Shown: piece after piece, positions 1 through 19,945 of the stretch
Layout of the letters: each line of letters starts with the position of its first letter
Numbering within the stretch: position 1 is the stretch's first letter
NCBI GenBank assembly: GCA_963737155.1
Contig: CAVTRN010000001.1
Span: 672,001-736,000 of the forward strand
Source of the DNA: Nitrospirota bacterium
GTDB lineage: Bacteria; Nitrospirota; UBA9217
Reading direction: 5' to 3'
DNA: 64,000 nt
Program-made: the position numbers and the translations under genes
The notes under the pieces: model-generated
What the model was told of the DNA's origin: nothing
What the model saw: the letters and a program-made list of their open reading frames with translations, nothing else
The model's database searches: none

Positions 1-1098
1 CTCGATGATCTTGTTCACATGCTCGACATTGGCCGGGCAGATATCCTGGCAGGCGCGGCATGTGGTGCAGGACCAGAGGGCTTCCTGGCCAATAGTTTCT
101 ATCAGTCCGGAGTCTGGAGAGCTCTCGGCGATCTCGCCCACCTGTTTGATCAGTTTCATGGGGGAGAGCGGTTTTCCGGTGGCTGTGGCGGGACAACGGT
201 CCTGGCAACGCTTACAACCCATGCAAGCGTCGGCATCGAAAATATCCTTCCAAGTCAGATCGGTGATCTTTGCGGCCCCGAACTGGTCAACTTCTTCTTG
301 AATTAGGTTTATGGTAGCGATTGATCCCTTCGGTTCTAACGGCGCAAAAAAAGCGTTGGCACTGGTAGTGACGATGTGTCGCAGTTTGGTGTAGGGGATG
401 GCGCAAATCAAACCAAGAACTAGGACGAAGTGGCCCCACCAGAGGATTTTGTGCGTGATCAGGATCGACGGGAGATCAAATCCGTTAAACAACCGTGCGA
501 CGACATAGCCGACAGGAGAAAAGAAAGCCAAGGCATGGTTCTGGTGGAGTTCGGTGGCAGCTATCCGCGCACCTTCGATCAGAAATCCGGTGCTCAGTAT
601 GGCAAGGAGAAGTTGATGGATGAGGTAATGCTGGCCAGTGGTTTCAAGCCCTTCGGGCTTCTTGATGAACCGTCTGTAGAAGAGCCCCCCCAGCATTAAC
701 AGCGCAACCAGCCCAGCCAGATCCAATACCAGCTTGTACCCCATATAGAACGCGCCGGAAAGAATATTGACCTTCATGATCGGCGTAAAGAAATCGACTT
801 GGAGCATCACTACCAGAGTGCCGACGAAGAGGGTGAGGAATCCCCAGAAGAATAGGGAGTGGAAAAGGCCACCATCTCTTACCCTGACAACCTTTTTCTG
901 GCCGAGCGCCTCGGCGATAAGCAACTTAAAGCGCTCCTTGAGATGGTCGAAACGATTGAGTGACTTACCCAACTGATAGAGTGACAGACGCTTCCAGAAT
1001 CCCCATACGCAGAAGGCAATTGCTAGGAACGATAAGAGGTACATGGGCCAAACGGCCCCGTGCCCGACATTCCAGAATATTTCTCTGGTCGCTTCCAT
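1..1098 (-). CDS. Membrane-bound Fe-S oxidoreductase (HdrF/FadF/DUF224-like), runs off the left edge
   Basis: Manual translation: MEATREIFWNVGHG..., multiple hydrophobic helices, then two ferredoxin motifs CMGCKRCQDRCP and CTTCRACQDICP; the frame is open to position 1. Confidence 0.85.
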   Translation of the reverse strand, partial: MEATREIFWNVGHGAVWPMYLLSFLAIAFCVWGFWKRLSLYQLGKSLNRFDHLKERFKLLIAEALGQKKVVRVRDGGLFHSLFFWGFLTLFVGTLVVMLQVDFFTPIMKVNILSGAFYMGYKLVLDLAGLVALLMLGGLFYRRFIKKPEGLETTGQHYLIHQLLLAILSTGFLIEGARIAATELHQNHALAFFSPVGYVVARLFNGFDLPSILITHKILWWGHFVLVLGLICAIPYTKLRHIVTTSANAFFAPLEPKGSIATINLIQEEVDQFGAAKITDLTWKDIFDADACMGCKRCQDRCPATATGKPLSPMKLIKQVGEIAESSPDSGLIETIGQEALWSCTTCRACQDICPANVEHVNKIIE

Positions 1099-1176
1099 AG
1101 TCTGACTTCTATTCATCAGCAATTTTCGGATAAGGTACGACCGTCACAGCAATTCTTCATAGTGCCTTCCGACTCT

Positions 1177-1839
1177 TTATCCTAGGGGCAATGCATCACT
1201 GGCGATAGGAAGCTTAGTTGCCGGTTCACCGATGAATACGCTTTTATCTTCTATAGTTTCGAGTATAATCGCTCCTGCACCAATCACGCATTCTTTTCCG
1301 ATTGATACTTTATTCCTTATCGTTGCGTTTGCACCTAAGTAGGAACCCGAGCCGATATCCACGCTTCCCGCAACAGATACCCCGGGCGAAAAGAAACAAT
1401 GATCGCCGATGGTAACATCGTGAGCTATCATACAACCATTTGCTATAATTACATTGCTCCCAATCTTTGCGTCAGGAGAAACTACAGTATAATGACCAAT
1501 AATACAGTTATCTCCAATTGCGGTTTCAGGCTGTATAATTGAATGAGGGCTTATAAAATTTATCAAATTATAACCCATTTCTTTTGATCGAAAGTACCTC
1601 TCTTTCCTTATTTTGTTATTATGCACGTAACCAACTGCTATCAACATTCTATGCCCATCCGGCGGGAATGCAGATTCAACAGTATCAAACGGTAAAATGG
1701 GCAGATTACAAAGACTGTCGGATTCCAAATATTCTCTGTCTACGGTAAAACCCACTACCTCGTAATGAGAATAATTTTTAAGGTAAAAAAAGGATTCTCG
1801 AGCCATAGATTTATTTCCATAAATTACAACTTTTTCCAT
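1177..1839 (-). CDS. NeuD/PglD-type left-handed beta-helix sugar acyltransferase (copy 2)
   Basis: N-terminal Rossmann-like VVIYG, IAVGY...R motif, hexapeptide repeats, candidate catalytic His in IAHD; start MEKVV after GAGAGGAG RBS. Confidence 0.9.
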   Translation of the reverse strand: MEKVVIYGNKSMARESFFYLKNYSHYEVVGFTVDREYLESDSLCNLPILPFDTVESAFPPDGHRMLIAVGYVHNNKIRKERYFRSKEMGYNLINFISPHSIIQPETAIGDNCIIGHYTVVSPDAKIGSNVIIANGCMIAHDVTIGDHCFFSPGVSVAGSVDIGSGSYLGANATIRNKVSIGKECVIGAGAIILETIEDKSVFIGEPATKLPIASDALPLG

Positions 1840-4704: not shown

Positions 4705-5505
4705 TCAAGTTATCCCCCATCGCCAGCACTTTAATTCTAATAAATTGCTATTTACAGCAAAAGCGCCTATATAATTAATGGCAGGCTTCAAACTTTGAAT
4801 CGACCATCGGGAAGCCTTTCTTGCGTCGCCTTCAGTTCCGATTAGCTCAGATGATTCCCCCGGGATCAATGATACATCAAATTTGTCTAGGGGCCGAGAC
4901 AAGCCTTCTCCGAGTGCTTTTACAATAGCCTCCTTGCAAGTCCAGCCTTTAAAGAAAGCTTCTCTCTTCTGGCTCTGAGGAAGCGCACGAAAAGCCTCTT
5001 TTTCTTTAATAGAAAAGAAACGTTCAACAATCTGTTCCATCTCAGACATGTCATGAACGTATTCAATGTCCACACCTATTTCATGGTTTCGAGCGAAGGC
5101 AAAAAGGGCAGCTCCATTTGAATGGGAAAGGTTAAAATGAATAGTGCGTCTCACGAATGGCCCTGCAATCTCAGGCTTTCCGTTTTCCCCCTGATTAAAC
5201 CGCAATTTGTCTGCTTGAACGCTCAGGTAACGTCCCAGAATCGTTCTCAGAATGCCATGTCTGGAGATGAACCACTTCCTGTCTTTCTGAAAATAAAACC
5301 GGTCAGCCCTCATTCTTTCATCAATGGAGAGTGTCTGCATAAACCTGTGCAATTCGGCGTCTGTTTGATCAAGGACAACAAACCAAATGTGGATTTCGTC
5401 ATCTGTCAATTTTAAGTCCAGAGGCGGAATTTCAAACGGAGGACAAAGATTTGTTAAATATTCGACTTCGGCGCTGGAATGTGTGTGTCCGATTTCAATG
5501 ACCAT
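4705..5505 (-). CDS. Sfp-type 4'-phosphopantetheinyl transferase
   Basis: GKP, FNLSHS, IGVDIE and WTCKEAIVKALGEG motifs; start uncertain (the ORF is open to 5661). Confidence 0.92.
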   Translation of the reverse strand: MVIEIGHTHSSAEVEYLTNLCPPFEIPPLDLKLTDDEIHIWFVVLDQTDAELHRFMQTLSIDERMRADRFYFQKDRKWFISRHGILRTILGRYLSVQADKLRFNQGENGKPEIAGPFVRRTIHFNLSHSNGAALFAFARNHEIGVDIEYVHDMSEMEQIVERFFSIKEKEAFRALPQSQKREAFFKGWTCKEAIVKALGEGLSRPLDKFDVSLIPGESSELIGTEGDARKASRWSIQSLKPAINYIGAFAVNSNLLELKCWRWGIT

Positions 5506-5879
5506 AATTTTCACGATTTCAGCAATGCAGAACTTACACTTTTTGTTTTGCCCCTGTGCGATCCGTGACTCCCGAAGTTCGGTAACTTCGAGTCTTTGAG
5601 CTCTCGTCCGCACTTTCCGGTCTAAACGCTTGGCGTTGGGGCTAGCCAAAACTTGGTTCACCAGATTCTTTATGATGAAAGCTCAGAATAATCTCGCAGA
5701 CGGTTTCAACATTGGATAAGATAGACTACCGTAAATCAATAGTGGCGATTTGCAATCCGCTTTTATGACACTGCAATAACATTTTCTTCATGGCCGAGCC
5801 TCCTATTACCTTAGAGGTCAATCCGTTGAAATCGTTCAGGAGACTTTTTTATGGAGAACAGCGGTGAAACGACCACTTC

Positions 5880-6542
5880 TCATCCAAGGGGTAATTCATC
5901 GCTGAAAATATCAAGCTTAGTTGCCGGTTCACCAAGATATACGCTTCTATCTTCTATATTTTCAAGTATAATCGCTCCTGCACCGATAACGCATTCTTTC
6001 CCCAGCGATACCCTATTCCTTATTGTTGCATTTGTACCTAAGAAGCAACCTGACCCGACATTCACGCTTCCCGAGACAGACACGCTATTTGAAAAAAAGC
6101 AATGGTCGCCAATAACGACGTCGTGCGCTATCGCACAATTATTTCCGATAATTACATTATTCCCAATTTTAGCATCCGGCCCAATTACAGAGTAATGGCT
6201 GATAGTACAGTTATCCCCAATTTCTGTTCCGGGATGTACAATTGAATGAGGGCTTATATAATTTACCAGCGAATAGCCCATTTCCTTTGCCCGCAGGTAC
6301 CTATCTTTTCTTATATTGTTGTTCTGCACATAACCGACTGCTATCAACATTTTATGCCTGTTCGGCGGGTATACAGTTTCGATAACATCAAAAGGGATGA
6401 CGGGCAGTTGAAAAAGACTGTCCGATTCCAAATACTCTCTGTCTACGGTAAAACCGACGATCTTATAATCGGAATGTTGCTTTAGACCAAGGTAGATTTC
6501 TCGAGCCATAGATTTATTTCCAAAAATTATCACGTTCTCCAC
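5880..6542 (-). CDS. NeuD/PglD-type left-handed beta-helix sugar acyltransferase (copy 1)
   Basis: Paralog of 1177..1839; IAVGY, IAHD, hexapeptide repeats. Confidence 0.9.
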   Translation of the reverse strand: MENVIIFGNKSMAREIYLGLKQHSDYKIVGFTVDREYLESDSLFQLPVIPFDVIETVYPPNRHKMLIAVGYVQNNNIRKDRYLRAKEMGYSLVNYISPHSIVHPGTEIGDNCTISHYSVIGPDAKIGNNVIIGNNCAIAHDVVIGDHCFFSNSVSVSGSVNVGSGCFLGTNATIRNRVSLGKECVIGAGAIILENIEDRSVYLGEPATKLDIFSDELPLG

Positions 6543-6618
6543 GATTCAGCCATCCTTTCGAACTCACTGTCAAACACAGATCTTCGATGCTGTGCAATAA
6601 ATCAGCGATTAAGATAAT

Positions 6619-9600
6619 CTATCCTATCAAGTTAATAGCTTTTTTCAGGTCAGTCCTTTTTTTCTGCAAATTTATCAATTCCGCGTTAGGAATTTTGGAT
6701 TTTTCGACCAAATGAGCTAACTTCGCCACTGTTCGTTCTTGAAAGATTACCTTCATCGGTATATTGACATTGAAAGAATGATTAATCTTTGCTATTAAAT
6801 TCACGCTGCTAAGTGAACTCCCGCCTAAATCAAAAAAATTATCGTTTATGCCTATTTTTTCTAAATGAAGAACCTCCTGCCAGATGGCAGTAATTGTGTT
6901 CTCTATCTCCGTCCGTGAAGCGACGCAGACGGATTCTAATTCGGGGATGATACTCGTCGATACAGGTCCTGCCGCCACCCCTGGAGCAACAAAGACGGGT
7001 CCTAATTCGGAACAAATGCTCGTAGAATCAGGTAGAGCTTGGCGATCTACCTTGCCATTATTGCCAACTGACTCAATAAAAAAGCGCTTCCGCTCAAAGG
7101 GGTAGGTCGGCAAAGGGAGCCGATGGCGTCCCTCATCCGCATAAAATCCCGACCAGTCTATCTGAACTCCGGCGAGCCAGATCCGGCCAAGGGCGTTCAA
7201 AATAAAAGCCGAGTCGGATGTTACGTCTTTTGGATGATGGGTCGAGGCGAGCACAATGTGATCTTTCGTTTTGTTTTGCTGCAGATTTGCCAGCACCATG
7301 AATGTTTGACCCGGCCCAACCTCCAGGAGCACTCGATTGGGTTCTTTCATTAATTCATGCAAACAGTCAGAAAATCGCACGGTAGAGCGCATGTGCCTGG
7401 CCCAATAACCTGGGTCCACAGCTTCACCGGGTGTAATCCAGGTGCCGGTAACATTCGATAAAAAGGGAATTCGGGGCGGCTTTGGGCTGGCCTGTTTTAC
7501 TTTTTCACTAAATACCGATAAAATCGGTTCCATCATTTCCGAATGAAAGGCATGGGAAGTTTTCAAATATTGACAAGCAAGATTCCTAGCCATTAGCTGT
7601 TTTTTTAGATCTTCCAAAGGCTCTTTTTCACCGGAGACAACGCAAAGTGAAGGCCCATTGATGACGGCCAAGGAGAGTTTGCTGCCCAAATATGGCTGTA
7701 TCTCTTTCTCCGAAAGAGGGACGACAAGCATGGAACCGCCGGGAAGATCCTGGATGAGCCGGCCTCTCGCAGCTACAAGCGTCAGGGCATCCTTCAGGGA
7801 AAAAACCCCGGCCAGACAGGCAGCAACATATTCTCCGATGCTGTGCCCTACTAATGCTGCCGGCGTCACTCCCCACGACATCCACAATTTTGCAAGAGCA
7901 TATTCAATGGCGAACAAGGCGGGTTGGGTAATATAGGTTTGCATAAGCAACTGCCCTGACTTTTCCAGGCTATTCTCATTTGGATATAAAACATCTCGTA
8001 AATCGAAGGAAAGATAGGGGTGAAGAATATCTGAGCATTGATCGATCTGTTCTCGAAATACTAATTCTGTTTTATAAAGTTCCAGCCCCATGTTTACGTA
8101 TTGCGATCCTTGGCCGGAAAACATGAAGACGACATCCCGCTTGACAGGTTCCTGAAAGGATGTCAATACCCTCTCCGTATTTAGAGTTTCGAGGACAACG
8201 ACGGCATCGTGGATGTCTCGGCAAACAGCCATTCGACGATGATTGAAAACCTTCCGTTCCTTCTGAAGGGTGTACACAACATCTGCGAAGTCCACTTCAG
8301 GATGCTGCTTCAGGTGCTGAACAAGATTCTTCGTCACATTTTCTAAAGCGTTATTTGTCTTGGCCGAAAGAAGCAGCAGTTTCCATGGCCTGGATTTGCC
8401 CGAAGCCTCGATAACAGGAGCTTCCTCCACAATGACGTGCGCATTGGTGCCGCCTATCCCGAACGAACTGACACCCGCCCGCCGGGGAAACGCATCCGTC
8501 TTCCATTCTGAAAGCTGAGTATTGACATAGAAGGGACTCTGCGCGAAATCAATTTGAGGGTTCGGCTTTTCAAAGTGCAGGCTTGGGGGGATGCACCTGT
8601 TTTTGAGCATGAGGACGGTCTTGATCAATCCCGCTATCCCCGCAGCATTATCAGTATGGCCGATATTCGTTTTTACCGAGCCGATGGCGCAAAACCCTTT
8701 CTTTTGGGTGCCCGCTCGAAATGCCTGAGTAAGAGCGGCAATCTCAATGGGATCGCCCATGGCGGTGGCAGTCCCATGAGTTTCGATATAGGTGATAGAC
8801 TCGGGTTTGACCTCGGCCATCATTTGGGCCGTTCTGATGACCTTTGCCTGACCTTCGACAGAAGGCGCCGTGAAGCCAACCTTGAAAGAACCATCGTTAT
8901 TCAGTGCCGCACCTTTGATGACTGCATGAATGCAGTCTCCGTCGGCAAGCGCTTCTTCCAGCCTCTTTAAAACGACTATCCCCACGGCATTGCTAAAAAC
9001 GGTCCCCTGCGCGCTGGCGTCAAAGGCTTTGCAGTGCCCATCGGGAGAAAAAATCGCTCCATCCTGGTAAAGATACCCTACTTTTTTCGGAAAACTTATT
9101 GAGCTGGCGCCGGCCAAAGCCATATCACATTCCCCGCTCAGCAGGCTTTGACAGGCTTGACAAACAGCCACAAGAGACGTGGAACAGGCGGTTTGAACCA
9201 CAACGCTTGGCCCTCTCAGGTTCATTTTATAGGAGACACGGGTGGTCACAAAATCTTTATCATTGCCGATCATCATTTGGACCGAACCCACTGATTCCAT
9301 AAGGGCACGGTTTGGATAAAGATTATTCAAATAATAATTGTTCATGCCCACCCCCCCCCAAACGCCGATGAGGCCCTCATACCGTTCGGGGTTGTACCCG
9401 GCACTTTCCAATGCTTCCCAGGCGCACTCCAGGAAATGCCGGTGCTGTGGGTCCATGGTCTCTGCTTCCAGGGGAGTAAAGCCAAAGAAGGAGGCGTCAA
9501 ACAACTCTGTATCTTCCAATATCCCCTTGGCTTTTACATAATTGGGATCATGCAATAAAACAGGATCTATTCCAGAAGATTCCAATTCCTCAGCCGTGAA

Positions 9601-9738
9601 AAAAGAAATGGATTCCACGCCGTCGCGCAAATTTCTCCAATATTCATCGACGTTTTTGGCGCCGGGAAAACGGCCAGACATCCCGATAATGGCTATTTCC
9701 GAGCCATTCCTAGAGCTAGATGAAGAAGCGTTACTCAT
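6619..9738 (-). CDS. Type I PKS module KS-AT-carrier
   Basis: KS TACSTSLVA, HGTAT, NIGH; AT GHSIG and HAFH (malonyl-type); carrier LGGSSL. No KR, DH, ER or TE domain. Confidence 0.95.
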   Translation of the reverse strand: MSNASSSSSRNGSEIAIIGMSGRFPGAKNVDEYWRNLRDGVESISFFTAEELESSGIDPVLLHDPNYVKAKGILEDTELFDASFFGFTPLEAETMDPQHRHFLECAWEALESAGYNPERYEGLIGVWGGVGMNNYYLNNLYPNRALMESVGSVQMMIGNDKDFVTTRVSYKMNLRGPSVVVQTACSTSLVAVCQACQSLLSGECDMALAGASSISFPKKVGYLYQDGAIFSPDGHCKAFDASAQGTVFSNAVGIVVLKRLEEALADGDCIHAVIKGAALNNDGSFKVGFTAPSVEGQAKVIRTAQMMAEVKPESITYIETHGTATAMGDPIEIAALTQAFRAGTQKKGFCAIGSVKTNIGHTDNAAGIAGLIKTVLMLKNRCIPPSLHFEKPNPQIDFAQSPFYVNTQLSEWKTDAFPRRAGVSSFGIGGTNAHVIVEEAPVIEASGKSRPWKLLLLSAKTNNALENVTKNLVQHLKQHPEVDFADVVYTLQKERKVFNHRRMAVCRDIHDAVVVLETLNTERVLTSFQEPVKRDVVFMFSGQGSQYVNMGLELYKTELVFREQIDQCSDILHPYLSFDLRDVLYPNENSLEKSGQLLMQTYITQPALFAIEYALAKLWMSWGVTPAALVGHSIGEYVAACLAGVFSLKDALTLVAARGRLIQDLPGGSMLVVPLSEKEIQPYLGSKLSLAVINGPSLCVVSGEKEPLEDLKKQLMARNLACQYLKTSHAFHSEMMEPILSVFSEKVKQASPKPPRIPFLSNVTGTWITPGEAVDPGYWARHMRSTVRFSDCLHELMKEPNRVLLEVGPGQTFMVLANLQQNKTKDHIVLASTHHPKDVTSDSAFILNALGRIWLAGVQIDWSGFYADEGRHRLPLPTYPFERKRFFIESVGNNGKVDRQALPDSTSICSELGPVFVAPGVAAGPVSTSIIPELESVCVASRTEIENTITAIWQEVLHLEKIGINDNFFDLGGSSLSSVNLIAKINHSFNVNIPMKVIFQERTVAKLAHLVEKSKIPNAELINLQKKRTDLKKAINLIG

Positions 9739-12700
9739 CTTGAAGGCTCCCTTCCATCAGGCCTGCTTGTTCTCTCTGTCTAATTCGTTGATGCAACCGG
9801 TTCTTCCCCTCTTTTAACTTCTCGGCCCTATCGTCATTTTTATTAGAAGGAATTTGCTCACTTCCTCCCACGCTTAAATAGTGAGACAGCGAGTTTATTG
9901 TCGGGTACTTGAACATGTCAAGCATGGACACATTCCGTTCCAGTTTGTTGCACAGTCTGCCGTGAACCTGGGCCATACGTAATGAATTGCCGCCCAAATC
10001 GAAAAAATTATCATTTACGCCTGTCTTTTCCAGATGAAGCACCTCTTGCCATATAGCAGCGATCGTGCGCTCTATTTCCGACCCAGGAGCCATATAGACA
10101 GATTCTAGCTCAGGACGGTGGCTTGCTGGAGCTGACAGGGATCGGCGATCTATCTTGCCATTCAGTGTCAAAGGAAACTTTTCCATCATCGTGAAGCTAC
10201 TTGGCACCATATACTCAGGCAGCTGTTCCCTCAGATATTGGCGCAATTCACTGATAGAAAGGTTTCGGTTCGCATTTGGGATGATATAAGCAGCCAGCTG
10301 TTTGTCCCCAGGGGTGTCCTCTCGGGCTATGACCACAACGTGGCGAACGGCTTCATGCCCTCCTAATACTGTTTCTATCTCGCCTATTTCTATACGAAAT
10401 CCTCGGATCTTGACCTGGTTATCCAAGCGGACAAGGTACTCCAGTTTTCCGTCTGGCAGATAACGGACCAAATCGCCAGTGCGGTATAAACGGGTCCCAG
10501 CTATTTTACTGAACAGATCAGGGATGAACTTTTGTACCGTCAGCTCTGGGCGATTTAAATAACCGCGTGCGAGCCCATCACCGCCGATCAACAACTCGCC
10601 GGGTACTCCTATCGGCAAAAGCTGGAGGTGCTTGTCGACGACGTAGAATTGCGTGTTTGCAATCGGCTGGCCTATCGACACAGACTCTCCCTCCTTGACC
10701 TGGCTGACAGCGGACCAGATAGTCGTTTCTGTCGGTCCGTACATGTTCCAGAGAGAAGCACACTTCGACAGCAGAGGCCTAGCCAGTTCCTGCGACCATG
10801 CCTCACCACCGCAAAGAATCTTCAATCGAGGATTTCCTTCCCAGCCCGATTCCAGCAATAGGCGCCACGTGGTTGGAGTGGCTTGCATCACCGTAGCTCT
10901 GCTTCGGGTCATGGCCATTGCTAATTGTTTCCCATCCATGACCACTTCTTGAGGCACGATTACAACCTTGGCCCCGGTTGTTAGCGGCAACCAAAGTTCC
11001 AGACCCAAAATATCGAAGGATATGGTCGTAACTGATAAGAGAGTATCGTGCTCATCCATTCCCGGCGATCTACGCATAGAGTTCAGAAAATTGACTACTG
11101 CACGATGGGATATTTCAACTCCTTTCGGATTACCCGTCGAGCCAGAAGTATAGAGGACATAAGCCAGATTGCTAGAACTCGGACGATCAGCAGCAGCTTG
11201 CGGCGCAACCGTCTCCGGTAAGGCATCAACACATATCACTTTTGCCTGGTGCGGCGGAGTCTCATCCAGTAACTTCTTCAAGGTAACCAGCACCGGAGGC
11301 TTTGCATCCGCAAGCATGAACGCCAATCGTTCCCGCGGGAACATTCTATCCAGCGGCAGGTAAGCGCCGCCAGCCTTGAGAATCCCCAGTAAGGCGATTA
11401 CCATCTCGAGGGAGCGGTCCATGAAGAGCCCTACGAGTATATCGGGACCAACCCCTAGCCCTCTCAGGTGCTGAGCGAGTTGATTGGCGCGATCATTAAG
11501 TTCACCGTAGGTCAGTGTCTGTTGCTCGAACACCAGGGCCACCTGATCGGGAATTCGCAAGCCCTGCTCTTCGATCAGTTGGTGCAAACAGAGATCTTTC
11601 CCGCGATAGGCCACTGTTGTATCATTCCAATTCACCAGCAGTTGCTGACGTTCAGCTTCGGTGAGCATCGGTAACATAGAAATACTCTGGTCTGGATCGG
11701 AGACTATTGCCTCTAGAAGTTTTTCGTAATGTTTACACAGACGTTGGATGGTATGGGCTTCAAATAAATCGGTACTGTACTCAATCAACCCTTCGAGATG
11801 GTTTCCGGTCTCAGAGAGGAGCAGCGTCAGATCAAACTTTGATGTTCCCGTCTCCAGTGTTCGGTTGCCGGACACCTTCGATACCTCCGAGACTCCGTCA
11901 GGGTTGTGGACAACGAACATCACCTGAAAGAGAGGAGTGCGGCTCGGATCCCGCTCCGGTGTCATTTCCGAAACGAGATGCCCGAAGGGAAGGTCTGCAT
12001 GAGCATAGGCACCTATGGCCCGCTCACGCACTTGTTGCAGCAGGGAGCGGAAGTCCAGGCCGTCATTGAACTTCGCGCGCAAGACGACTGTGTTGAGGAA
12101 GTAGCCGATCATGCGCTCAGTTTCTCTGTGAGTTCGGCCGGTAATGGGGGTCCCCACCAGGATGTCGCCCTGGCCCGTATAGCGGTGCAACAAGGCCATA
12201 AAACTTGCCTCAAGAATCATAAACAGGGTGGCGTTCTCCCGTCGACCCAGAGATTTTATTCGCTCCAATAACTCCTTGGACAACTCAAAGATCTCTGTCG
12301 ATCCACGAAAGCTCTGCACGGCAGGGCGTTGCTTGTCGGTGGGCAGTTCTAGAATGAATGGAGCACCCGCCAGTTCTTCCTTCCAGTAAGATACCTGCCT
12401 CTGTAGTACTTCTCCCTGTAACCAATTTCGCTGCCAACAGGCAAAATCTGCATATTGGATTGGCAACTCCGAAAGAGGAGACGGCTGATTTTGAGAAAAA
12501 GCCTCAAAAAGTTGATTTACTTCCTGGTGAATTATCTCCATGGACCATTCGTCAGCAATAATGTGGTGGATGGTCAGCAGCAACCTGTGTTCTTGATTGG
12601 TCAGATGGACCATGGTCCCTCGAAATAGAGGGGCTTGAGACAAGTCGAAGGGCTTTCGCCCCTCCTCATGCACAACACGGAGCCATTCGCGTTCTTGCTC

Positions 12701-14986
12701 CTGCTCAGGCAAAGAACGTAAATCCAATTCTGACAGCGTCAGGTCGATCATCGGCAGAACAACCTGCATCGGTTGTCCTTCATTGTGAGAAAAGGCGGTG
12801 CGCAATACTTCATGGCGGCGCACCAACTCCATCATGGCTCTTCTCATCGTTTCCGCGTCATACTCCCCACCGATACGGATCACGTCCACGAGATTGTAGA
12901 CAGGACTGCCGGGTGACAGTTGGTCCAAAAACCAGAGCGGTTCCTGAGTAAAGGATAGTGAACATGGTCCACTCTGTTTACGCTGCCCGATCTCTTGAAT
13001 ACTTCCACCCTTGGCTTTAGTCAGGGCCTTGGACACATCGGTAATGGTAGGGTTTTCAAACAAAGTTTCGATCTCTAGATCCACGCCGAATACATCACGA
13101 ATTCTCGATATGGCCTTAATCGCCAGCAATGAATGCCCACCCAAATCAAAAAAACTGTCGTTGATCCCGATATTCTCCACTTTTAGCAATTCGGTCCAAA
13201 TGGCAGCGAGGGCCTTCTCGGTTTCCGTGTGTGGCCTGACGAAATCGTGGGAGGCTGCGAGATTATCGGAAGTGGGCGCCGGCAGAGATTTTCGATCAAT
13301 CTTTCCGTTCGATGTGAGCGGCAGCCGGTCCAGCCTGATAAAATAGGGGGGGAGCATGTAAGCGGGCAATTCCTGGGCGAGGTGGGCGCGCAGCTCCGCC
13401 GCGTTCAACGACTTCTCGCTCACATAATATGCGACCAGCCTATTGATACTCATCTCACCAGTTTTCGACGGCTCAGCGCTGTCCGCCATTTGTTTGCTGT
13501 CCCAGCCAACTACATCGACTACACACTCGCGAACGTCGGCGTGTTTCAGGAGACGGGCCTCGATCTCCCCCAGCTCAATGCGTACGCCGCCAACTTTCAC
13601 CTGATTATCAACGCGTCCCAGGAATTCCATGCTTCCCTTGGCGTTCCATCGAGCGAGATCTCCAGTCTTGTAGAGGCGCAACAACGCTGACCCAATGACT
13701 GATGATTTTGCTGCCGGCAAATTTTGTCTCGGGTCCTTCGCCGTTACGAATTTCTCCTCGGTGAGCTCTGGCCGATTGACGTAGCCGCGGGCCAATCCAT
13801 CCCCTGCTATGCACATCTCGCCTATGTCGCCAATGGGCACAGGGTTGAGGTTCTCGTCGAGAATAAAGATGCAGGTATTGGCAGCAGGATTTCCAATGGG
13901 GACCGAAGGGGCGAGATCGTTCTCTCTATCATAACGGTGAATCATGCAACCGACGGTGGCCTCCGTGGGGCCGTACTCGTTGTATATCTCCACCGGGTAG
14001 CCGGCGTTGCGAGTAATATCGCTTGCCAGCTCAGTCTTGAAATCCTCGCCGCCGACGATGAACTTGCGAATCTTGGTGGCACTCGAGACCATCCCTTTTA
14101 TCATGGCAAGGTGAGCTGGCGTCAGCTTCACGATGTCAGCCACGTTGTCCTCAATAACTTTGAAAATCACCGTGCCGTGCACACCCGGGTCTTCATGATA
14201 GACGACAATGTGGCCACCGGAAATAAGGGGCGTGAATATCGATGTTACCGTGAGATCAAATGCAAGAGAGGAAAACAATGGCCAGGTCAGCCGTTCACCC
14301 CTGCAGTACTTCTCGTTCGCCCACCAGATGTAATTCACCAAGCTACGGTGCTCGATCATAACGCCCTTGGGCGTGCCTGTGGAGCCGGAAGTGTAGATAA
14401 CGTAGGCGAGATTGTTTGGGGACACGGGAAACCGTGGATTTGTGACCGGATATTGCCCGATCGAAGCGAAGTCGGCATCCAACGTTATCACTCGCGCTAT
14501 GCCGTCCGGAAGGTCCCTCGCAAAACTCGATTGGGTCACCAACACGGGCATAGTTCCCGCAAGTCCTTTTGCAATATCCTGCAATATGAAGACAAGGCGC
14601 TCTTTCGGGGTGTTAATATCAATAGGCACATATGCAGCACCAGCCTTAAGCACTCCGAGCATTGAGCAAACAACCTCGATTGAGTTTCCCATGTACAGGG
14701 CGACGAGTTGATCCGCATCGGTGCCGAGTGTGCGGAGTTTCACTGCCATCTGATTCGCGCGGTCGTTCAGCTCACGATACGTCAACCCTTGATCGCCAGA
14801 ATGGATGGCCTCATCCTCTGGCGTGCGCTCTACCTGGGCTTCAAAGAGTTCAACTATTGTTTTGTCTGCGGGATATGGCGCCGCAGACTTGTTGTATTCG
14901 ATAACCAGCGACTGATACCCGCGCTCCAACTGAGGGGCTAACGAATCGATGGGCCGATCGATCACGTAGTCCTTTTCGTTGCTCAT
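9731..14986 (-). CDS. Bimodular NRPS A(Asn)-PCP-C-A(Gly)-PCP
   Basis: Two complete A domains, carriers LGGHSL and LGGNSL, C-domain HHIIADEWS; stop overlaps the PKS start. Start placed at MSNEK after GAGAGGAG. Confidence 0.96.
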   Translation of the reverse strand: MSNEKDYVIDRPIDSLAPQLERGYQSLVIEYNKSAAPYPADKTIVELFEAQVERTPEDEAIHSGDQGLTYRELNDRANQMAVKLRTLGTDADQLVALYMGNSIEVVCSMLGVLKAGAAYVPIDINTPKERLVFILQDIAKGLAGTMPVLVTQSSFARDLPDGIARVITLDADFASIGQYPVTNPRFPVSPNNLAYVIYTSGSTGTPKGVMIEHRSLVNYIWWANEKYCRGERLTWPLFSSLAFDLTVTSIFTPLISGGHIVVYHEDPGVHGTVIFKVIEDNVADIVKLTPAHLAMIKGMVSSATKIRKFIVGGEDFKTELASDITRNAGYPVEIYNEYGPTEATVGCMIHRYDRENDLAPSVPIGNPAANTCIFILDENLNPVPIGDIGEMCIAGDGLARGYVNRPELTEEKFVTAKDPRQNLPAAKSSVIGSALLRLYKTGDLARWNAKGSMEFLGRVDNQVKVGGVRIELGEIEARLLKHADVRECVVDVVGWDSKQMADSAEPSKTGEMSINRLVAYYVSEKSLNAAELRAHLAQELPAYMLPPYFIRLDRLPLTSNGKIDRKSLPAPTSDNLAASHDFVRPHTETEKALAAIWTELLKVENIGINDSFFDLGGHSLLAIKAISRIRDVFGVDLEIETLFENPTITDVSKALTKAKGGSIQEIGQRKQSGPCSLSFTQEPLWFLDQLSPGSPVYNLVDVIRIGGEYDAETMRRAMMELVRRHEVLRTAFSHNEGQPMQVVLPMIDLTLSELDLRSLPEQEQEREWLRVVHEEGRKPFDLSQAPLFRGTMVHLTNQEHRLLLTIHHIIADEWSMEIIHQEVNQLFEAFSQNQPSPLSELPIQYADFACWQRNWLQGEVLQRQVSYWKEELAGAPFILELPTDKQRPAVQSFRGSTEIFELSKELLERIKSLGRRENATLFMILEASFMALLHRYTGQGDILVGTPITGRTHRETERMIGYFLNTVVLRAKFNDGLDFRSLLQQVRERAIGAYAHADLPFGHLVSEMTPERDPSRTPLFQVMFVVHNPDGVSEVSKVSGNRTLETGTSKFDLTLLLSETGNHLEGLIEYSTDLFEAHTIQRLCKHYEKLLEAIVSDPDQSISMLPMLTEAERQQLLVNWNDTTVAYRGKDLCLHQLIEEQGLRIPDQVALVFEQQTLTYGELNDRANQLAQHLRGLGVGPDILVGLFMDRSLEMVIALLGILKAGGAYLPLDRMFPRERLAFMLADAKPPVLVTLKKLLDETPPHQAKVICVDALPETVAPQAAADRPSSSNLAYVLYTSGSTGNPKGVEISHRAVVNFLNSMRRSPGMDEHDTLLSVTTISFDILGLELWLPLTTGAKVVIVPQEVVMDGKQLAMAMTRSRATVMQATPTTWRLLLESGWEGNPRLKILCGGEAWSQELARPLLSKCASLWNMYGPTETTIWSAVSQVKEGESVSIGQPIANTQFYVVDKHLQLLPIGVPGELLIGGDGLARGYLNRPELTVQKFIPDLFSKIAGTRLYRTGDLVRYLPDGKLEYLVRLDNQVKIRGFRIEIGEIETVLGGHEAVRHVVVIAREDTPGDKQLAAYIIPNANRNLSISELRQYLREQLPEYMVPSSFTMMEKFPLTLNGKIDRRSLSAPASHRPELESVYMAPGSEIERTIAAIWQEVLHLEKTGVNDNFFDLGGNSLRMAQVHGRLCNKLERNVSMLDMFKYPTINSLSHYLSVGGSEQIPSNKNDDRAEKLKEGKNRLHQRIRQREQAGLMEGSLQDE

Positions 14987-14991
14987 ATGCT
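13113..14991. repeat. Near-identical 1.88-kb direct repeat, copy 2
   Basis: Matches 2632..4510. Confidence 0.97.
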
Positions 14992-15031
14992 GTTCTCCTC
15001 TTTCAGCCAACTGAAGACCATTTTCATAATT

Positions 15032-15916
15032 TCATTCGCTCCGCTTTGGTTGTATAAGAACATCAGGTAAATCCAGTTCGTCCACGTGATCGTCAACGAT
15101 CGAAATATTACCGTTGCCGTGAATGCTGTTGATGAAACTCGATATTCTGTAGCTCAATGAATTAAACTCGTAAGTAATCTTGATTCGTCCTTGATTTCGC
15201 ACAAATGATTCTCTAAACATTAATGTAAGAAGATCTTCATCTGATATCAAGTCCATAAACTTACGTTTAAGCATGTCGTAACAGTCATAATAGTTCATTT
15301 GGATCGAAAATCGGTGATCTGTACCGTACGAAAAATCATCAAGTGTTCTTTCATGCCTTTTGAGAACGAGGGTCTCTCGGTCGAAGAGAATTTTCTGGAT
15401 GCGTCCGCCGTTGATCGATGCATCACTGTCAAGGATGAACGGGGAGCACGTTCCGAAACTCATTCCGTTGGGCAATGTTGAAGCTTTCTTGAGGTGGGTT
15501 TCTTGAGGTAATCGAAGCGCACTTATGATTTGAGATCGATCGATAAAGCATCCGGTTTCCGGGGTAACAATCGCGTACAGGGCCCCTGTATCCGGACACT
15601 CAAAATAAAGAGCTTTGATGACATTCAACGGACTCCATTCACCCAAAAGCTCCGCCTTTTCGTAGCATGTGTTCGTTTTTTTCGGATGCGTGACAATGCT
15701 ACACTCACCATGACTTTTCTCAAAATGATCAGCGATGTACTCAAGACCCCATTTCGACAGAAATAGCTTTCGAAATTCCTCACCATTAACTTGAAGTTCT
15801 TTCGCAAAACTTGGCAAGCACTTCCCATTCAATGATGGATCATTTTTTTCAATATCATAGTCTTCGGGTGTAAGTGGTGATGCCTGGGACTTCAATCGAT
15901 AAGAGCTCATAATCAA
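15032..15916 (-). CDS. YbaK/ProX (INS superfamily) aminoacyl-editing-like protein with N- and C-terminal extensions
   Basis: Pattern HP..T..E.A.LLG....VIKAL (conserved Lys), Y.IV.P....D, GMSFGTCSPF (GxxxP loop), ILFD..L, F..G....SI.M. Confidence 0.65.
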   Translation of the reverse strand: MIMSSYRLKSQASPLTPEDYDIEKNDPSLNGKCLPSFAKELQVNGEEFRKLFLSKWGLEYIADHFEKSHGECSIVTHPKKTNTCYEKAELLGEWSPLNVIKALYFECPDTGALYAIVTPETGCFIDRSQIISALRLPQETHLKKASTLPNGMSFGTCSPFILDSDASINGGRIQKILFDRETLVLKRHERTLDDFSYGTDHRFSIQMNYYDCYDMLKRKFMDLISDEDLLTLMFRESFVRNQGRIKITYEFNSLSYRISSFINSIHGNGNISIVDDHVDELDLPDVLIQPKRSE

Positions 15917-16215: not shown

Positions 16216-17364
16216 TCATAGCGACCATCCAATCACTTCCTTCATAATTTCATTTGTGCCAGCGTAAATTCGTTGTCCGCGTCCATCCGCCCACATGCGG
16301 GCGATCGGATATTCCAGCATATAGCCGTAGCCGCCATGCAACTGAACACATTCATCGACGATGCGCCACTCACAGTCAGTGAGCCAATACTTCGCCATGG
16401 CAGCGGTAATAGCGTCGAGCTGACCTGCGATGAAACGCTCTATGCAGTTGTCGATAAAAATCCGACCAATGTGGGCTTCGGTCTTGCATTCGGCCAGTTT
16501 GAAACGCGTATTCTGAAAATCAATCAGTGGCTTGCCGAACACAATGCGCTCTTTCACATACTTAGTCGTTATGGCCACAGCTCGTTCTGCTGTTGCGATT
16601 GCGGCAACGCCAATCGTGAGGCGCTCATAGGGTAATTGCGCCATCATTTGAGAAAATCCTTTGCCTTCAGCGGGACCTAGAAGGTTTGAGGCCGGAACAC
16701 GCACGTCATCGAAGAAAAGCTCGCAGGTATCCCGTTCATGCATACCGATTTTTTCGAAAGGGTGGCCAACTTTGTATCCGGGAAGATCCTTCGTTTCGAC
16801 GATGATGAGCGAGATGCCTTTCGGGCCGACAGCTTTAGCGTCGGTCTTCACGGCAAGGCAGACAATACCTGCTAGCCAACCGTTGGTGATGAACGTCTTT
16901 GAGCCATTGATTACATAGTGATCACCGTCGCGACGAGCGGTGGTTTTGATGCTCTGCACGTCCGAGCCGGCAGTAGGTTCGCTCATAGCAATTGCGCCCA
17001 CCAGCTCGCCACGCGCCATGGGAGGGAGCCACTTGCGTTTCTGCTCCTCACTACCGTAGGCGAGGATATAATGTGCCATAATGCTATGGACCGTACAGCC
17101 AAAGTGGACTCCCGCTTGAGCGAGCTCCTCTATAATGACAGCTTCGTAAGCGAAGGTACCTCCTCCGCCATATTCTTCTGGTGCGTCTGGGAGCAGGATG
17201 CCTATGCCACCCGCTGCTATCCAAGCTTCGGCATCGGGATAATGCTGTTGACGCCAACGGGCTTGGTGCGGCACGAATTCTTTTTGTATGAATTTGCGGA
17301 CCGTTTCGCGAAACATCCGAAGCTCGTCATTCATCCACGAAGATTGGTAGGCAATAGGAGACAT
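16216..17364 (-). CDS. Acyl-CoA dehydrogenase, LCAD-like
   Basis: [37 protein letters not shown]; candidate catalytic Glu in LPYERL. Confidence 0.95.
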
Positions 17365-17457: not shown

Positions 17458-18306
17458 TCAGGAGTCAGCAAAAATCTCCATCCACCGTGATTTAAGCAGC
17501 CCCATTCTCACAATATTATGCCATGTGCTGTTGATCAGAGCGTCGTCGAGAAACAGCCCCTCCAGTTCAAATCCAAACTTGCTGTTCAAATTGATGTTAC
17601 GTATATTCGCATTTCCTGAATGAATAAAGACCTTGTTAAAATTAAGAATGCAAAAAACGTAATACAAAAAAACGAATGTGGCATGTTTCCCTATCCCTTT
17701 TCCCTGCGAATTTAACTCACCGACCAGTTTTTTCATTTCCAATTTTTTTGACTCATTATCAAGAGAGTCCGCGCCAATAATCCCAACTGGTTTTTCGCAA
17801 TAATATATCCCAAAATAGGTTCGACCATAATATTCAAAATACTTTATTAAATCACTTTCTGTGTCAGGCAGTGCGGGTATAAAATTATACTTGATCCCCG
17901 GCTGACTCAACCAGTTCGCGACTTGGTTGTACAGTTCCGGCCGGAGTGGCGATATTTCGACGTCCTCAATTCTTAATTTCTTCTCTGTGGACCAGTTATC
18001 TTTAATGTCGCTAACTCTAAACAGATCATTATAAAATTGATTGCCGCCCTTCTGAATTCTCTTGTCTTTGATCAGACAGTCCAGTAAATGAGTCGACACT
18101 GAGACAATATCTTTTTCCTCGACGCCGAAATTGATGAGTTCCTTATAAAATCCCTTAGAAATTATTTTTAACATTTGCTGCTGCTGCAGATCTTGAACTT
18201 CAGGGTCGGTTTCTGGGCCCATAGGTGCTTGCTGTACCTCGGTCAATTTCAGGTTTTCAGCCATGCCGTCGAACATCGGTAATCTGTTTTTTTGCATTGC
18301 AGTCAT
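17458..18306 (-). CDS. GNAT (RimJ/L-like) N-acyltransferase with an extra N-terminal domain
   Basis: Motif A QGKGIGK and NIRNINLNSKFGFELEG in the C-terminal half. Confidence 0.85.
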   Translation of the reverse strand: MTAMQKNRLPMFDGMAENLKLTEVQQAPMGPETDPEVQDLQQQQMLKIISKGFYKELINFGVEEKDIVSVSTHLLDCLIKDKRIQKGGNQFYNDLFRVSDIKDNWSTEKKLRIEDVEISPLRPELYNQVANWLSQPGIKYNFIPALPDTESDLIKYFEYYGRTYFGIYYCEKPVGIIGADSLDNESKKLEMKKLVGELNSQGKGIGKHATFVFLYYVFCILNFNKVFIHSGNANIRNINLNSKFGFELEGLFLDDALINSTWHNIVRMGLLKSRWMEIFADS

Positions 18307-18467: not shown

Positions 18468-18947
18468 TTACTCATCTTTGATGTTCCTTATGAATTTTGC
18501 TGGATTTCCCGCGACAATTGCATTTGCCGGAACGTCCTTTGTCACAACGCTGCCGGAACCCACGATGGCCCGTTCGCCTATCGTAATGCTACAGAGTATC
18601 GTTGATCCCGAACCGATGGATGCACCCTTTTTTACAATTGTCGGCATCACCTTCCAGTCCGCCTCACTCTGCAGGCCTCCGCTTCCATTCGTGGCCCGCG
18701 GGTACTTGTCGTTGATGAATGTTACCCCATGCCCGATTAGGACATCGTCTTCAATGGTCACACCCTCGCATATGAACGTATGGCTCTGAATCTTGCAGTT
18801 CTTGCCGATGAAGGCGTTCTTCTGCACCTCGACAAAAGTGCCGATCTTCGTATTATCGTCGATGGCACACCCGTACAGGTTGACGAAGTTTGCAATCTTG
18901 ACGTTTTTGCCGAGCCGCACATCTTCGGCGATGCAATGGTATTTCAT
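18468..18947 (-). CDS. WbpD/WlbB-like hexapeptide NDP-amino-sugar N-acyltransferase
   Basis: [30 protein letters not shown]; ATGA-coupled to the upstream gene. Confidence 0.9.
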
Positions 18948-19945
18948 AGCGCCACTTCTCTCCCATTCTCTTTGATTGATTGGTTGCATGCCTGGAGCAG
19001 CTTTACGACGCGAAGCCCCGAATGCCCGTCATTGATCGGTCGTTCGCCGCTCATGGCGCAGCGGACGAAATATTCGGTTTCGAGCTTGAGCGCCTCTATC
19101 TGCTCCACGCGCGGGGCGTACATGTCCCCGGAACGGTAATTGACCAGCAGTTTGTACGATGACTCTTTGCTGTTGATGTCGATGCCCTTGTCATAGATTT
19201 TGATTTTCTCGTCGGCCTCAAGGTCGTTCCAGAGGAGCATCTTTTTCTCGCCGCCGATTAAGGTCGTGCGAACCTTGACCGGCGATAGCCAGTTGACGTT
19301 GAAGTGCGCAATAATGCTGTTGTTGAATTGGACTGTTACGTAAGCAGTGTCCTCATACGCGTTGACATGGGCCTTGCCGCACGCCGAGACCGCCGCTGGC
19401 TTCTCGTCAATGAGATAGTCCATAACGGAAAAATCGTGTGGTGCGAGGTCCCAGATAACGTTCACATCGGGCTGAAAGAGCCCCAAGTTCACGCGGATGG
19501 AATCGTAATAGTAGAGGTCGCCCAGGACCTTATCGTCGATAAGCTGTTTTATCTTTTTCACCGCGCCAGTGAAGAGAAAGGTGTGGTCTACCATGATGGT
19601 GCGCCGCTTCTGCTCTGCTAGTTCTATCAGCTGTTCTGCCTGAGCCACCGTTGCCGTGAACGGTTTCTCCACGAATACGTGCTTGCCATTTTGAATCGCT
19701 TTTTTTGCCAGTTCGAAATGCGTCGACACCGGCGTGATGACGGCGACGGCGTCGACTTCCGGCGAGTTGAGAATGTCGTTGGGCTCGGTCGTCAAATTGA
19801 CATGAGGATACGATTTACGTGCGCGGTTCATGGCGTCCTGATTGCGATCACAGATGGAGGAGACCTTGACCCCCTCAATGCTGTTGAAATTCCGCACGAT
19901 ATTCGGCCCCCAGTAACCGTATCCTATAATCCCAATGTTTATCAT
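18944..19945 (-). CDS. Gfo/Idh/MocA NAD-dependent oxidoreductase (WbpB/WlbA-like NDP-sugar dehydrogenase)
   Basis: IGYGYWG, HVFVEKP, DLAPHD motifs. Confidence 0.92.

Follow-up and report, generated by a model that had tools for sequence, protein, structure and literature searches.

How does an acyl chain leave an assembly line that ends in a carrier domain and carries no release domain? The question is raised by a 64,000-nt stretch of DNA from a Nitrospirota bacterium (GTDB lineage UBA9217; GenBank assembly GCA_963737155.1, contig CAVTRN010000001.1, forward strand), which we call the window and which corresponds to C1:672001–736000 of a 4.84-Mb, two-contig genome. The window encodes a nonribosomal peptide synthetase (NRPS), a type I polyketide synthase (PKS) and a second, 866-residue synthetase protein. 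Genes for two left-handed β-helix (LbH) acyltransferases, LbH1 and LbH2, directly follow those of the PKS and the 866-residue protein, respectively. An earlier sequence-only reading had proposed that these proteins off-load the chain from the carrier onto a sugar. The pairing of one LbH clade with carriers, a natural carrier–LbH fusion, the duplication of a carrier–LbH cassette, the lack of any other release domain and the surrounding sugar genes all support that proposal. With a probability of about 0.6, we read LbH1 and LbH2 as carrier-dependent sugar acyltransferases that form the release step of two small thiotemplate lines and whose acylated sugars would enter an exopolysaccharide (EPS). 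Coordinates are collected in Table 1; L numbers are labels of relatives' loci, except that L161 denotes the 20 kb to the left of the window.

Two synthetase lines without a release domain

The PKS retains intact Cys, His and His motifs in its ketosynthase (KS), GHSIGE and HAFH in its acyltransferase (AT) and GGSSL in its acyl carrier protein (ACP) domain; HAFH presumably indicates malonyl specificity. Pfam finds no ketoreductase (KR), dehydratase (DH), enoylreductase (ER) or thioesterase (TE) domain in this protein, and because KR, DH and ER are missing the ACP-bound product should keep its β-keto group. The thiolation (T) carriers of the NRPS contain GGHSL at position 624 (T1) and GGNSL at position 1673 (T2), and its condensation (C) domain contains HHIIADE. 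Specificity codes of adenylation (A) domains were read by motif-position alignment with GrsA numbering. The first A domain of the NRPS and the A domain of the 866-residue protein have the same code, DLTKIGEVGK, which we take to be of the asparagine type, and the second A domain of the NRPS has DILQLGMIWK, presumably of the glycine type. The donor predicted for LbH1 is an Asn–Gly–malonyl β-keto chain, and that predicted for LbH2 is Asn or an Asn derivative.

The 866-residue protein combines a canonical T1 (GGHSL) with a terminal carrier, T', whose motif is GGNLL, placing Leu at the position of the phosphopantetheine Ser. Judged from this motif, T' is probably a pseudo-carrier. The same A-T-Asub-T architecture, where Asub is an additional adenylation subdomain, occurs in L083/L084, L085 and L092, with GGSLL in the terminal carrier, and the L090 partner protein is an A-T-tail protein with a canonical Ser. 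The carrier–LbH arrangement had been thought to recur unchanged behind this protein; LbH2 does follow it at 65 nt, but the terminal motif means that it is not a simple repeat of the first case. The Ser-less terminal carrier is otherwise well conserved (window 1908–2252 on the minus strand, L083 2030–2374, L092 7578–7922).

No match to the Pfam families Thioesterase, Abhydrolase or NAD_binding_4 was found in the 13 open reading frames (ORFs) of positions 1–21158 or in the 16 ORFs of L161, and neither the window operon nor the adjoining 20 kb on the left showed a terminal C domain. The NRPS and PKS ORFs of L001, L002, L004 and L005 are 1023–1104 residues long and therefore leave no room for a release domain. 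Phosphopantetheinyl transferase (PPTase) genes, of which the window has one, are also present in L001, L005, L090, L092 and L095.

LbH1 and LbH2 are NeuD-family acyltransferases

The earlier description of a NeuD/PglD-type acyltransferase with an intact IAHD motif within about 80 bp of a carrier-ended PKS is confirmed. LbH1 begins 76 nt after the PKS, and both proteins score above the cut-off (160.8 bits) of TIGR03570, the NeuD/PglB/VioB profile, with 187.8 bits for LbH1 and 195.5 bits for LbH2. The matches cover essentially the complete model (profile positions 2–201 of 202 for LbH1, residues 4–207 of the protein, and 1–201 of 202 for LbH2), and the two proteins are 71% identical to each other. 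His140 of LbH1, in the sequence AIAHD, aligns with the His of VIEHE in the Campylobacter jejuni PglD chains 2npo, 3bss and 2vhe, which we take to be the catalytic His125; LbH2 also retains IAHD, as MIAHD. The His position is at least 90% conserved in a 28-row clade alignment, the exception being L093, which has Glu. An N-terminal domain is present: Pfam PglD_N matches with an E-value of 0.001, which is below its cut-off, and the structural model contains a β-α-β arrangement. The best matches of LbH1 among solved structures by sequence are PglD, PerB, WeeI, PglB-ATD and Acinetobacter baumannii VioB (E-values 1e-23 to 1e-10).

Carrier pairing is a trait of one LbH clade

A protein search in which 8000 candidates were scored returned 1706 homologues at E <= 1e-10, of which the best 120 are 55–99% identical to LbH1 and 192–256 residues long. 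Loci were fetched by means of the 28-row alignment for the best 80 of 199 genome relatives and the best 80 of 436 metagenome relatives, and were compared with the window proteins by tblastn. In all five genome loci with at least 54% identity, a C-A-T NRPS gene and a KS-AT-ACP PKS gene adjoin the LbH gene. These loci come from metagenome-assembled genomes (MAGs) labelled Nitrospirae (1), Leptospirales (2), Spirochaetes (1) and Pirellulales (1), and the gene order is NRPS, PKS, LbH in L001 and L005 and LbH, NRPS, PKS in L002–L004. The closest homologues are thus not found in ordinary O-antigen or Neu clusters; their presence there is what the sequence-only reading had named as speaking against it.

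A quick IQ-TREE phylogeny of 117 distinct LbH sequences, rooted at the midpoint, places every carrier-adjacent LbH, including LbH1 and LbH2, in one clade of 22 rows (SH-aLRT 97). Rows with fewer than 185 aligned residues, rows with stops and 10 duplicates were left out, and Pseudomonas syringae VioB was not among the rows. Within the clade, 14 rows have a carrier domain that ends 43–285 nt upstream, and the rows of L002–L004 lie directly in front of the C-A-T and KS-AT-ACP genes. The L087 row follows a protein that ends in a C domain, and in the L107 row 3.3 kb with a glycosyltransferase, a second LbH and a DegT gene separate the LbH from a preceding sulfotransferase-C-A-T protein. For L081 and L088, the available upstream sequence is 96 nt or less. 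The remaining row, L006, lies between an unknown ORF and genes for DegT and a PglF-like dehydratase; its flanks, 0.9 kb upstream and 3.8 kb downstream, encode no synthetase. Among related loci, the spacer measures 43–153 nt in 12, and in L091 it is 285 nt.

Outside the clade, an adenylation gene lies near only 4 of 95 rows: L009, with an A-T-deaminase protein, and L011, L013 and L014, with a ligase. PP-binding matches were found in none of the 146 ORFs that flank 26 loci of the group with 33–47% identity, a scan by Pfam of ORFs of at least 60 residues that a very short ACP could escape. The flanks of that group instead encode DegT, WbqC, GT2, methyltransferases, FdtA, FemAB-like GNAT proteins, BKACE and PhyH. 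Types with less than 32% identity mostly adjoin Bac_transf, the classical PglC–PglD arrangement, rather than a synthetase. The comparison of neighbourhoods inside and outside the clade therefore indicates that carrier pairing is a trait of one subfamily and not of NeuD-type enzymes generally.

LbH2 groups with the LbHs of L083, L085 and L092, which also follow A-T-Asub-T proteins (SH-aLRT 95), and the nearest rows to LbH1 by path are L081, which has no flank, and L001, which lies behind a PKS. LbH1 and LbH2 are the only clade copies in the source genome. No match above 42% identity to LbH1 was found in 60 related genomes (14 from the genus of the source, 22 from its family and 24 from its phylum); with the source genome G000, 43 of the 61 genomes searched are at least 90% complete. 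LbH1 and LbH2 have their best matches (72–83% identity) in L001, from a MAG labelled Nitrospirae, and on metagenome contigs. Because the distribution is patchy, it suggests that the cassette moves horizontally.

Carrier–LbH fusion, co-duplication and a common tail of partner proteins

A search among longer proteins identified P0243, a metagenomic protein of 883 residues in which A (26–505), T (536–597) and LbH (665–883) form a single chain. Its carrier has the canonical Ser, and its LbH part is 47% identical to LbH1 over 217 residues. In L095, a 356-residue fusion of Hexapep and PP-binding domains is encoded directly upstream of a clade LbH.

Within the window, a self-blastn comparison and a repeat search (families D2 and D3) show that positions 1179–2205 and 5882–6910, both on the minus strand, are 76% identical over 1.03 kb. 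The duplicated stretch, the older of two in the window, covers terminal carrier, spacer and LbH, so that all three were copied as one unit. A second pair, 2632–4520 and 13113–15001 (minus strand), is a direct repeat 10.5 kb apart with 99.5% identity (9 mismatches in 1889 nt). It spans the A domain together with the first half of T1, with the junction just after the T1 Ser motif, and the encoded proteins agree at 643 of 662 residues. The first 1889 nt of the gene for the 866-residue protein duplicate the NRPS stretch, and the two proteins therefore have the same A-T1. This repeat suggests a recent duplication or gene conversion. Misassembly of a 1.9-kb repeat was considered and rejected, given that the copies differ at nine positions and the genome is in two contigs.

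The proteins that precede or accompany the clade LbHs also share a C-terminal sequence. A hydrophobic-x-hydrophobic-hydrophobic-Gly pattern lies within the last eight residues of 13 of 17 distinct partner proteins, about 20 residues past the carrier fold, as INLIG, TKLIG, IELIG, IKLVG, IRMIG and IKLIG; further tails are IKLLGLD, VKLLGLD, LRLLGYL, RRVLGV, LKKLGLSN and IKMLGLTD. Tail-bearing partners include the L087 protein, which ends in a C domain, and the PKSs of L002–L004, which are encoded downstream of LbH. The tail is divergent or absent in the 866-residue protein and in the partners from L005, L085 and L091. Where an NRPS module passes its chain to a KS (L001 and L005), its C-terminus bears another, basic tail. 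On this sequence pattern, the shared tail is a candidate docking peptide.

The donors appear to vary from locus to locus. The codes of L001, L004 and L005 (DVWHISLVDK) and of L002 (DVWHFSLVDK) are presumably of the serine type, and the L095 code is presumably of the glycine type. L085, L090 and L092 share a code that we assign to the asparagine type, the first code position is not Asp in L094 and L009, and L091 has a KR-ACP. This range of codes and reduction states fits a transferase that recognises the carrier and not the acyl group.

Other features of these synthetase loci deserve description. A glutamine-hydrolysing asparagine synthase gene (L090 1963–3621) adjoins the dehydrogenase and the Asn-type A domain, consistent with a dedicated supply of Asn. 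In L095 (2–6775), the A domain of the NRPS is interrupted by a luciferase-like monooxygenase. A radical SAM/SPASM gene, the Hexapep–PP-binding fusion, the clade LbH and genes for a PPTase, DegT, DUF218 and a PglF-like dehydratase follow. In L107 (3–4685), a locus with two clade-related LbH genes, a C-A-T NRPS carries an N-terminally fused sulfotransferase domain.

Proposed mechanism

The proposed mechanism rests on gene context and architecture. Domain content, family, the conserved His, gene pairing, cassette duplication, the fusion protein and the lack of a release domain are direct observations, and we infer the donor, acceptor, docking and product. In line 1, to judge from the domains, A1 would load Asn on T1 and the C domain would join it to Gly on T2. 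The KS-AT-ACP protein would then extend the dipeptide with malonate, and without reduction a β-keto acyl thioester would form on the ACP. LbH1 would recognise the ACP and its C-terminal tail, and the phosphopantetheine arm would enter the groove that binds CoA in PglD-type enzymes. With His140 as the base, the chain would pass to a nucleotide-activated amino sugar, at its free amine; the GFO/IDH/MocA and DegT enzymes encoded in the locus would supply this sugar. A complex prediction for three LbH1 chains with the PKS ACP and tail returned a score of 0.01 against a mark of 0.32 in a run without controls, and is taken neither as support for binding nor as evidence against it.

In line 2, the 866-residue protein would load Asn on its canonical T1, where the dehydrogenase, electron transfer flavoprotein (ETF) and a YbaK-like protein may tailor or proofread it. 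LbH2 would be recruited by the Ser-less terminal carrier-like domain, with Asub-T' as an adaptor, and would transfer the unit to a second amine. The acylated sugars of both lines would be built into the XrtA/PEP-CTERM exopolysaccharide.

The tailoring steps of line 2 are suggested by the genes next to the NRPS. The dehydrogenase encoded there probably tailors the carrier-bound unit and, with ETF and the Fe-S oxidoreductase, may oxidise it; the latter two are probably its electron outlet. The 294-residue protein belongs to a family of 153 members; none of the 120 listed has a Pfam domain, and those that are named are called hypothetical. Its model (pLDDT 82.8) matches 1wdv, 2cx5, 1dbu and 2dxa in Foldseek (E-values 6e-6 to 3e-5, TMt 0.69–0.74), which are YbaK/ProX aminoacyl-tRNA trans-editing deacylases, and on the strength of this model the protein may proofread the loaded aminoacyl carrier. 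Alongside an Asn-type A-T cassette, both dehydrogenase and 294-residue protein are encoded in L092, the dehydrogenase alone in L090 and the 294-residue protein alone in L085.

A broader proposal, to which we give slightly less than an even chance, is that these enzymes belong to a family of LbH release enzymes that is widespread, moves horizontally and couples NRPS/PKS lines to glycan synthesis. Such enzymes would read the tail, sometimes through a Ser-less pseudo-carrier adaptor, and write variable acyl groups (Asn, Gly, Ser or non-amino acids, β-keto or reduced) on amino sugars. The product would be a chemically undescribed class of peptide–polyketide-decorated polysaccharides. At least 120 protein clusters are at least 55% identical to LbH1, and members occur in MAGs labelled Nitrospirae, Spirochaetes/Leptospirales and Pirellulales.

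Weighing the alternatives

Several observations weigh against carrier-dependent transfer to a nucleotide sugar. The N-terminal loop reads GNKSMA in the core clade versus a GAGGHG-type loop in PglC-adjacent PglD types, and nucleotide-sugar binding is accordingly not assured. The LbH1 monomer model is of only moderate confidence (pLDDT 68.8), and Foldseek, which ranks the PglD/PerB/WeeI/VioB family top for it, gives TM-scores of just 0.31–0.44 to the PglD family, so that the model is too weak to support an analysis of the pocket. The terminal carriers of the 866-residue protein, L083, L085 and L092 have no canonical Ser; LbH2 therefore cannot draw its substrate from T', and T1 must deliver it in cis. 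The tail of the 866-residue protein is the divergent YKIIDTSS, and the role of the dehydrogenase is left unexplained by the model. L006, 44% identical to LbH1, belongs to the clade and has an ordinary DegT/PglF-like setting, with no synthetase in its visible flanks. DegT is not seen in the visible parts of L002, L003, L005, L083 and L092. The clade rows are moreover kin, so that the counts given above describe a conserved trait and not independent events.

It is unlikely, though the best placed of the alternatives, that the LbHs are ordinary acyl-CoA (acetyl-CoA) sugar N-acetyltransferases that lie beside the synthetases merely because the two contribute to the same polysaccharide. The chain would then leave otherwise, for example by spontaneous lactam formation from a γ-amino-β-keto thioester or through the GNAT and FemAB-like enzymes encoded in the locus. 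All solved relatives with a named donor among the matches listed (PglD, PerB, PglB-ATD and Pcryo_0637) are CoA-dependent or were crystallised with CoA, L006 fits this explanation, and the broader 220-residue family (33–47% identity) shows no carrier nearby. It does not, however, explain the clade-specific adjacency, the A-T-LbH fusion and carrier–LbH co-duplication or the shared partner tail. Other acetyltransferases are also already present in the same loci: separate small or PglD-like enzymes in the window, L001 and L004 might account for simple N-acetylation, and in the window the 173-residue hexapeptide protein could be its source.

Somewhat less likely again is a carrier-dependent release catalyst whose acceptor is something other than a nucleotide sugar: it might be water, a small amine, another amino acid (as for the LbH-like terminal domains of Pls/PosA synthetases) or the amine or hydroxyl of a lipid-linked or polymer-level sugar. 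The GNKSMA loop, which is not of the GAGGHG type, would suit such an acceptor, and annotation of the NeuD family includes O-acyltransferases. LbH1 and LbH2 also match TIGR02353, the Pls/PosA terminal domain, with 28.8 and 27.8 bits (E-values 4e-7 and 8e-7), far below the cut-off of 423.1. Against it, the full two-domain NeuD architecture is kept, the loci are all polysaccharide loci and DegT genes occur in 8 of 13 annotated loci or genomes (the source genome, L001, L004, L006, L086, L090, L095 and L107).

It is highly improbable that the LbHs tailor a carrier-bound intermediate, for example by N-acylating an aminoacyl thioester from acyl-CoA to provide a donor for C domains without an upstream module: the NRPS of L001–L005 does begin with a C domain and has no visible upstream A-T, but the LbH gene lies behind the last and not the first Ser-bearing carrier of the visible line in nine loci (the window, L001, L005, L086, L089, L090, L091, L093 and L094), the carrier of the window line bears a chain with a distant amine, and this role leaves both release and the sugar-type N-terminal domain unexplained.

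Relation to known systems

Of published systems, the one that comes closest is the Pseudomonas syringae pv. tabaci viosamine island, which comprises vioA, vioS, acp, vioB, vioR, vioM and vioT (PMC3927599). In it, vioS encodes a β-ketoacyl synthase III (KAS III) and vioR a ketoreductase, and the available passages of the paper propose a route through dTDP-N-acetoacetylviosamine and give genetic and mass-spectrometric evidence; these passages contain no assay of ACP dependence (PMC3927599). The island resembles the window in pairing a NeuD/VioB-type transferase with a carrier, a ketosynthase and a DegT-type aminotransferase, and its N-acetoacetyl (β-keto) amino sugar intermediate, whose acyl group ends on a glycan, can be likened to the pathway proposed here (PMC3927599). 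It differs in having a free type II ACP, a KAS III, a ketoreductase and a C4 acyl group (PMC3927599). The window system has modular NRPS/PKS carriers, an amino-acid-containing chain, a shared partner tail, a pseudo-carrier variant and an LbH clade of its own, and Pfam finds no KR or short-chain dehydrogenase/reductase (SDR) in the window operon or L161. This comparison supports viewing the window as an assembly-line version of carrier-fed, VioB-type sugar N-acylation. The termination mode, described at first as unusual, is accordingly less unprecedented, in that an ACP and a ketosynthase already accompany a VioB-type enzyme in the viosamine island (PMC3927599).

Among enzymes of solved structure, PglD, PerB, WeeI, PglB-ATD, Pcryo_0637 and A. 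baumannii VioB come nearest to LbH1 by sequence and fold; PglD, PerB, WeeI, PglB-ATD and VioB share with it the two-domain build and the aligned catalytic His. Most of these enzymes are named N-acetyltransferases by their depositors or shown with (acetyl-)CoA. The PglC-adjacent PglD types are further distinguished from the clade by lacking its 15-residue C-terminal extension, which ends in LPLG.

LpxA and LpxD, like the role proposed for LbH1, are LbH enzymes that transfer an acyl group from a carrier protein to a UDP-sugar, and LbH1 matches them in part. The scores fall far short of the family cut-offs (79.4 bits, cut-off 207, for LpxD; 63.6 bits, cut-off 226, for LpxA), and the N-terminal domain is different. 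The C-terminal helical domain of LpxA and LpxD binds ACP. LbH1, at 220 residues, stops 15 residues beyond the LbH core and is too short to accommodate such a domain. In Pls/PosA synthetases, an LbH-like domain takes the role of a TE and converts a carrier-bound amino acid into an amide. These terminal domains differ from LbH1 in being fused and membrane-embedded with an amino acid as acceptor, and the match is weak and local. By sequence, LpxA/LpxD and Pls/PosA are functional analogies only. BtrH of butirosin biosynthesis and the PCP-C protein of streptothricin biosynthesis transfer a carrier-bound aminoacyl unit to the amine of an amino sugar. These catalysts have folds unrelated to LbH and make a small-molecule antibiotic and not a polysaccharide.

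A search of full-text literature, with subscription journals outside its scope, returned no description of an NRPS/PKS chain released by a NeuD-type enzyme; the paper on the viosamine island was the sole relevant one. No paper on a Vibrio cholerae tetronate/RfbO case was found in the same literature.

If the proposal is correct, an LbH sugar acyltransferase replaces the TE, reductase (R) or C domain, which adds a release logic to thiotemplate biosynthesis. Modular NRPS/PKS lines would then diversify cell-surface polysaccharides as well as make secreted small molecules, and the proposal would explain many orphan mini NRPS–PKS clusters without release domains in environmental bacteria and would predict unknown glycan structures. 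The carrier-tail/LbH pair would also be portable, as a means of putting designed acyl groups on amino sugars. Docking in particular is open to direct test through the pseudo-carrier and the tail.

The locus and its surroundings

LbH1 and LbH2 lie in the middle of a large exopolysaccharide locus that is able to make amino sugars (Table 1). The NRPS stop and PKS start overlap by 8 nt, and the PKS stop codon occupies 6619–6621. The ORF of LbH2 can be read from a TTG at 1869; its relatives start at the ATG at 1839, which gives the spacer quoted above.

Table 1. Features of the window, in the order in which they are read on the minus strand
Feature	Position	Strand	Basis
XrtA/PEP-CTERM EPS genes: ATPase, NusG-like protein, exporter, chain-length determinant, Tyr kinase, outer-membrane protein	27124..33615	-	
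Bac_transf polyprenyl-phosphate sugar-phosphate transferase, initiating enzyme	19989..21158	-	Pfam Bac_transf, 223 bits; TIGR03025, 291.3 bits, cut-off 295.55
GFO/IDH/MocA oxidoreductase, candidate sugar 3-dehydrogenase	18944..19945	-	Pfam; NCBIfam UDP-GlcNAc 3-dehydrogenase, 179 bits, cut-off 450
Small hexapeptide acetyltransferase, 173 aa	18468..18989	-	Pfam Hexapep; TIGR03570, 80.8 bits, below cut-off
GNAT-family acetyltransferase	17458..18306	-	Pfam Acetyltransf_3 and Acetyltransf_1
Acyl-CoA/acyl-carrier dehydrogenase family protein	16216..17364	-	Pfam Acyl-CoA_dh_N, _M and _1; prolyl-PCP dehydrogenase matches below cut-off
294-aa protein, no Pfam or NCBIfam family	15032..15916	-	YbaK/ProX-like deacylase fold by model
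NRPS, 1759 aa, A-T-C-A-T	9731..15010	-	Pfam AMP-binding x2, PP-binding x2, Condensation 683–1125
Type I PKS, 1039 aa, KS-AT-ACP	6619..9738	-	Pfam ketoacyl-synt, Ketoacyl-synt_C, Acyl_transf_1, PP-binding 948–1011
PKS C-terminal tail TDLKKAINLIG, candidate docking peptide	6622..6654	-	
Spacer from PKS stop to LbH1 start, 76 nt	6543..6618	-	ORF coordinates
LbH1, 220 aa, GTG start, NeuD/PglB/VioB-family two-domain acyltransferase	5880..6542	-	TIGR03570; clade membership
Sfp/HetI-type PPTase	4705..5661	-	Pfam ACPS and AASDHPPT_N; NCBIfam HetI, 237.6 bits, cut-off 370
A-T-Asub-T' protein, 866 aa	1905..4505	-	Pfam AMP-binding, PP-binding x2, AMP-binding_C x2
LbH2, 220 aa from ATG at 1839	1177..1839	-	TIGR03570; LbH1 paralogue
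Membrane Fe-S oxidoreductase, 4Fe-4S, CCG domain further left	1..1122	-	Pfam

In ORF calls for the window, the NRPS, PKS, LbH, PPTase and 866-residue-protein genes share one strand, and the run continues past LbH2 into L161 with genes for the Fe-S/CCG oxidoreductase, ETF beta, ETF alpha and a second GFO/IDH/MocA protein. L161 also holds two DegT aminotransferase genes, 8.7–11 kb left of the window in the same strand run, as well as genes for a FemAB-like GNAT, a Wzx-type flippase and several GT2 proteins. The label XrtA/PEP-CTERM rests on five EPS profiles, each above its cut-off: TIGR03015 (385.7 bits, cut-off 324.5), TIGR03027 (216, 180), TIGR03007 (365.5, 278.85), TIGR03018 (243.9, 230.65) and TIGR03016 (130.8, 90.85); NusG was assigned by Pfam. 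Within this EPS locus, 21831–27041 (minus strand) encodes a 1736-residue protein with four Big_5 and InlB-B-repeat-like domains.

Pfam matches for DegT, Wzx, GT2, Wza, Wzz, Wzy and PPTase across the related loci identify them as polysaccharide loci. Behind the A-T-LbH cassettes of L083 (3280–8304) and L090 (8918–10240) lie genes for GT2, a small EamA-type protein, a YfhO-like membrane protein and a PIG-L deacetylase. This set recalls the ArnC/ArnE-F/ArnT or CsbB/GtcA/YfhO route, in which a modified sugar is carried on polyprenyl phosphate. A β-keto acid cleavage enzyme (BKACE) gene lies beside flippase and LbH genes in L001 (12259–13098) and L097 (8709–9569), an association of note given the β-keto product predicted here. 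Among the relatives with 33–47% identity, an ORF of about 300 residues without a Pfam match lies directly downstream of LbH in L007 (10666–11571), L022 (10660–11574), L099 (8682–9614), L108 (8666–9574), L124 (6671–7588) and L130 (5648–6571), often with a WbqC-family gene close by.

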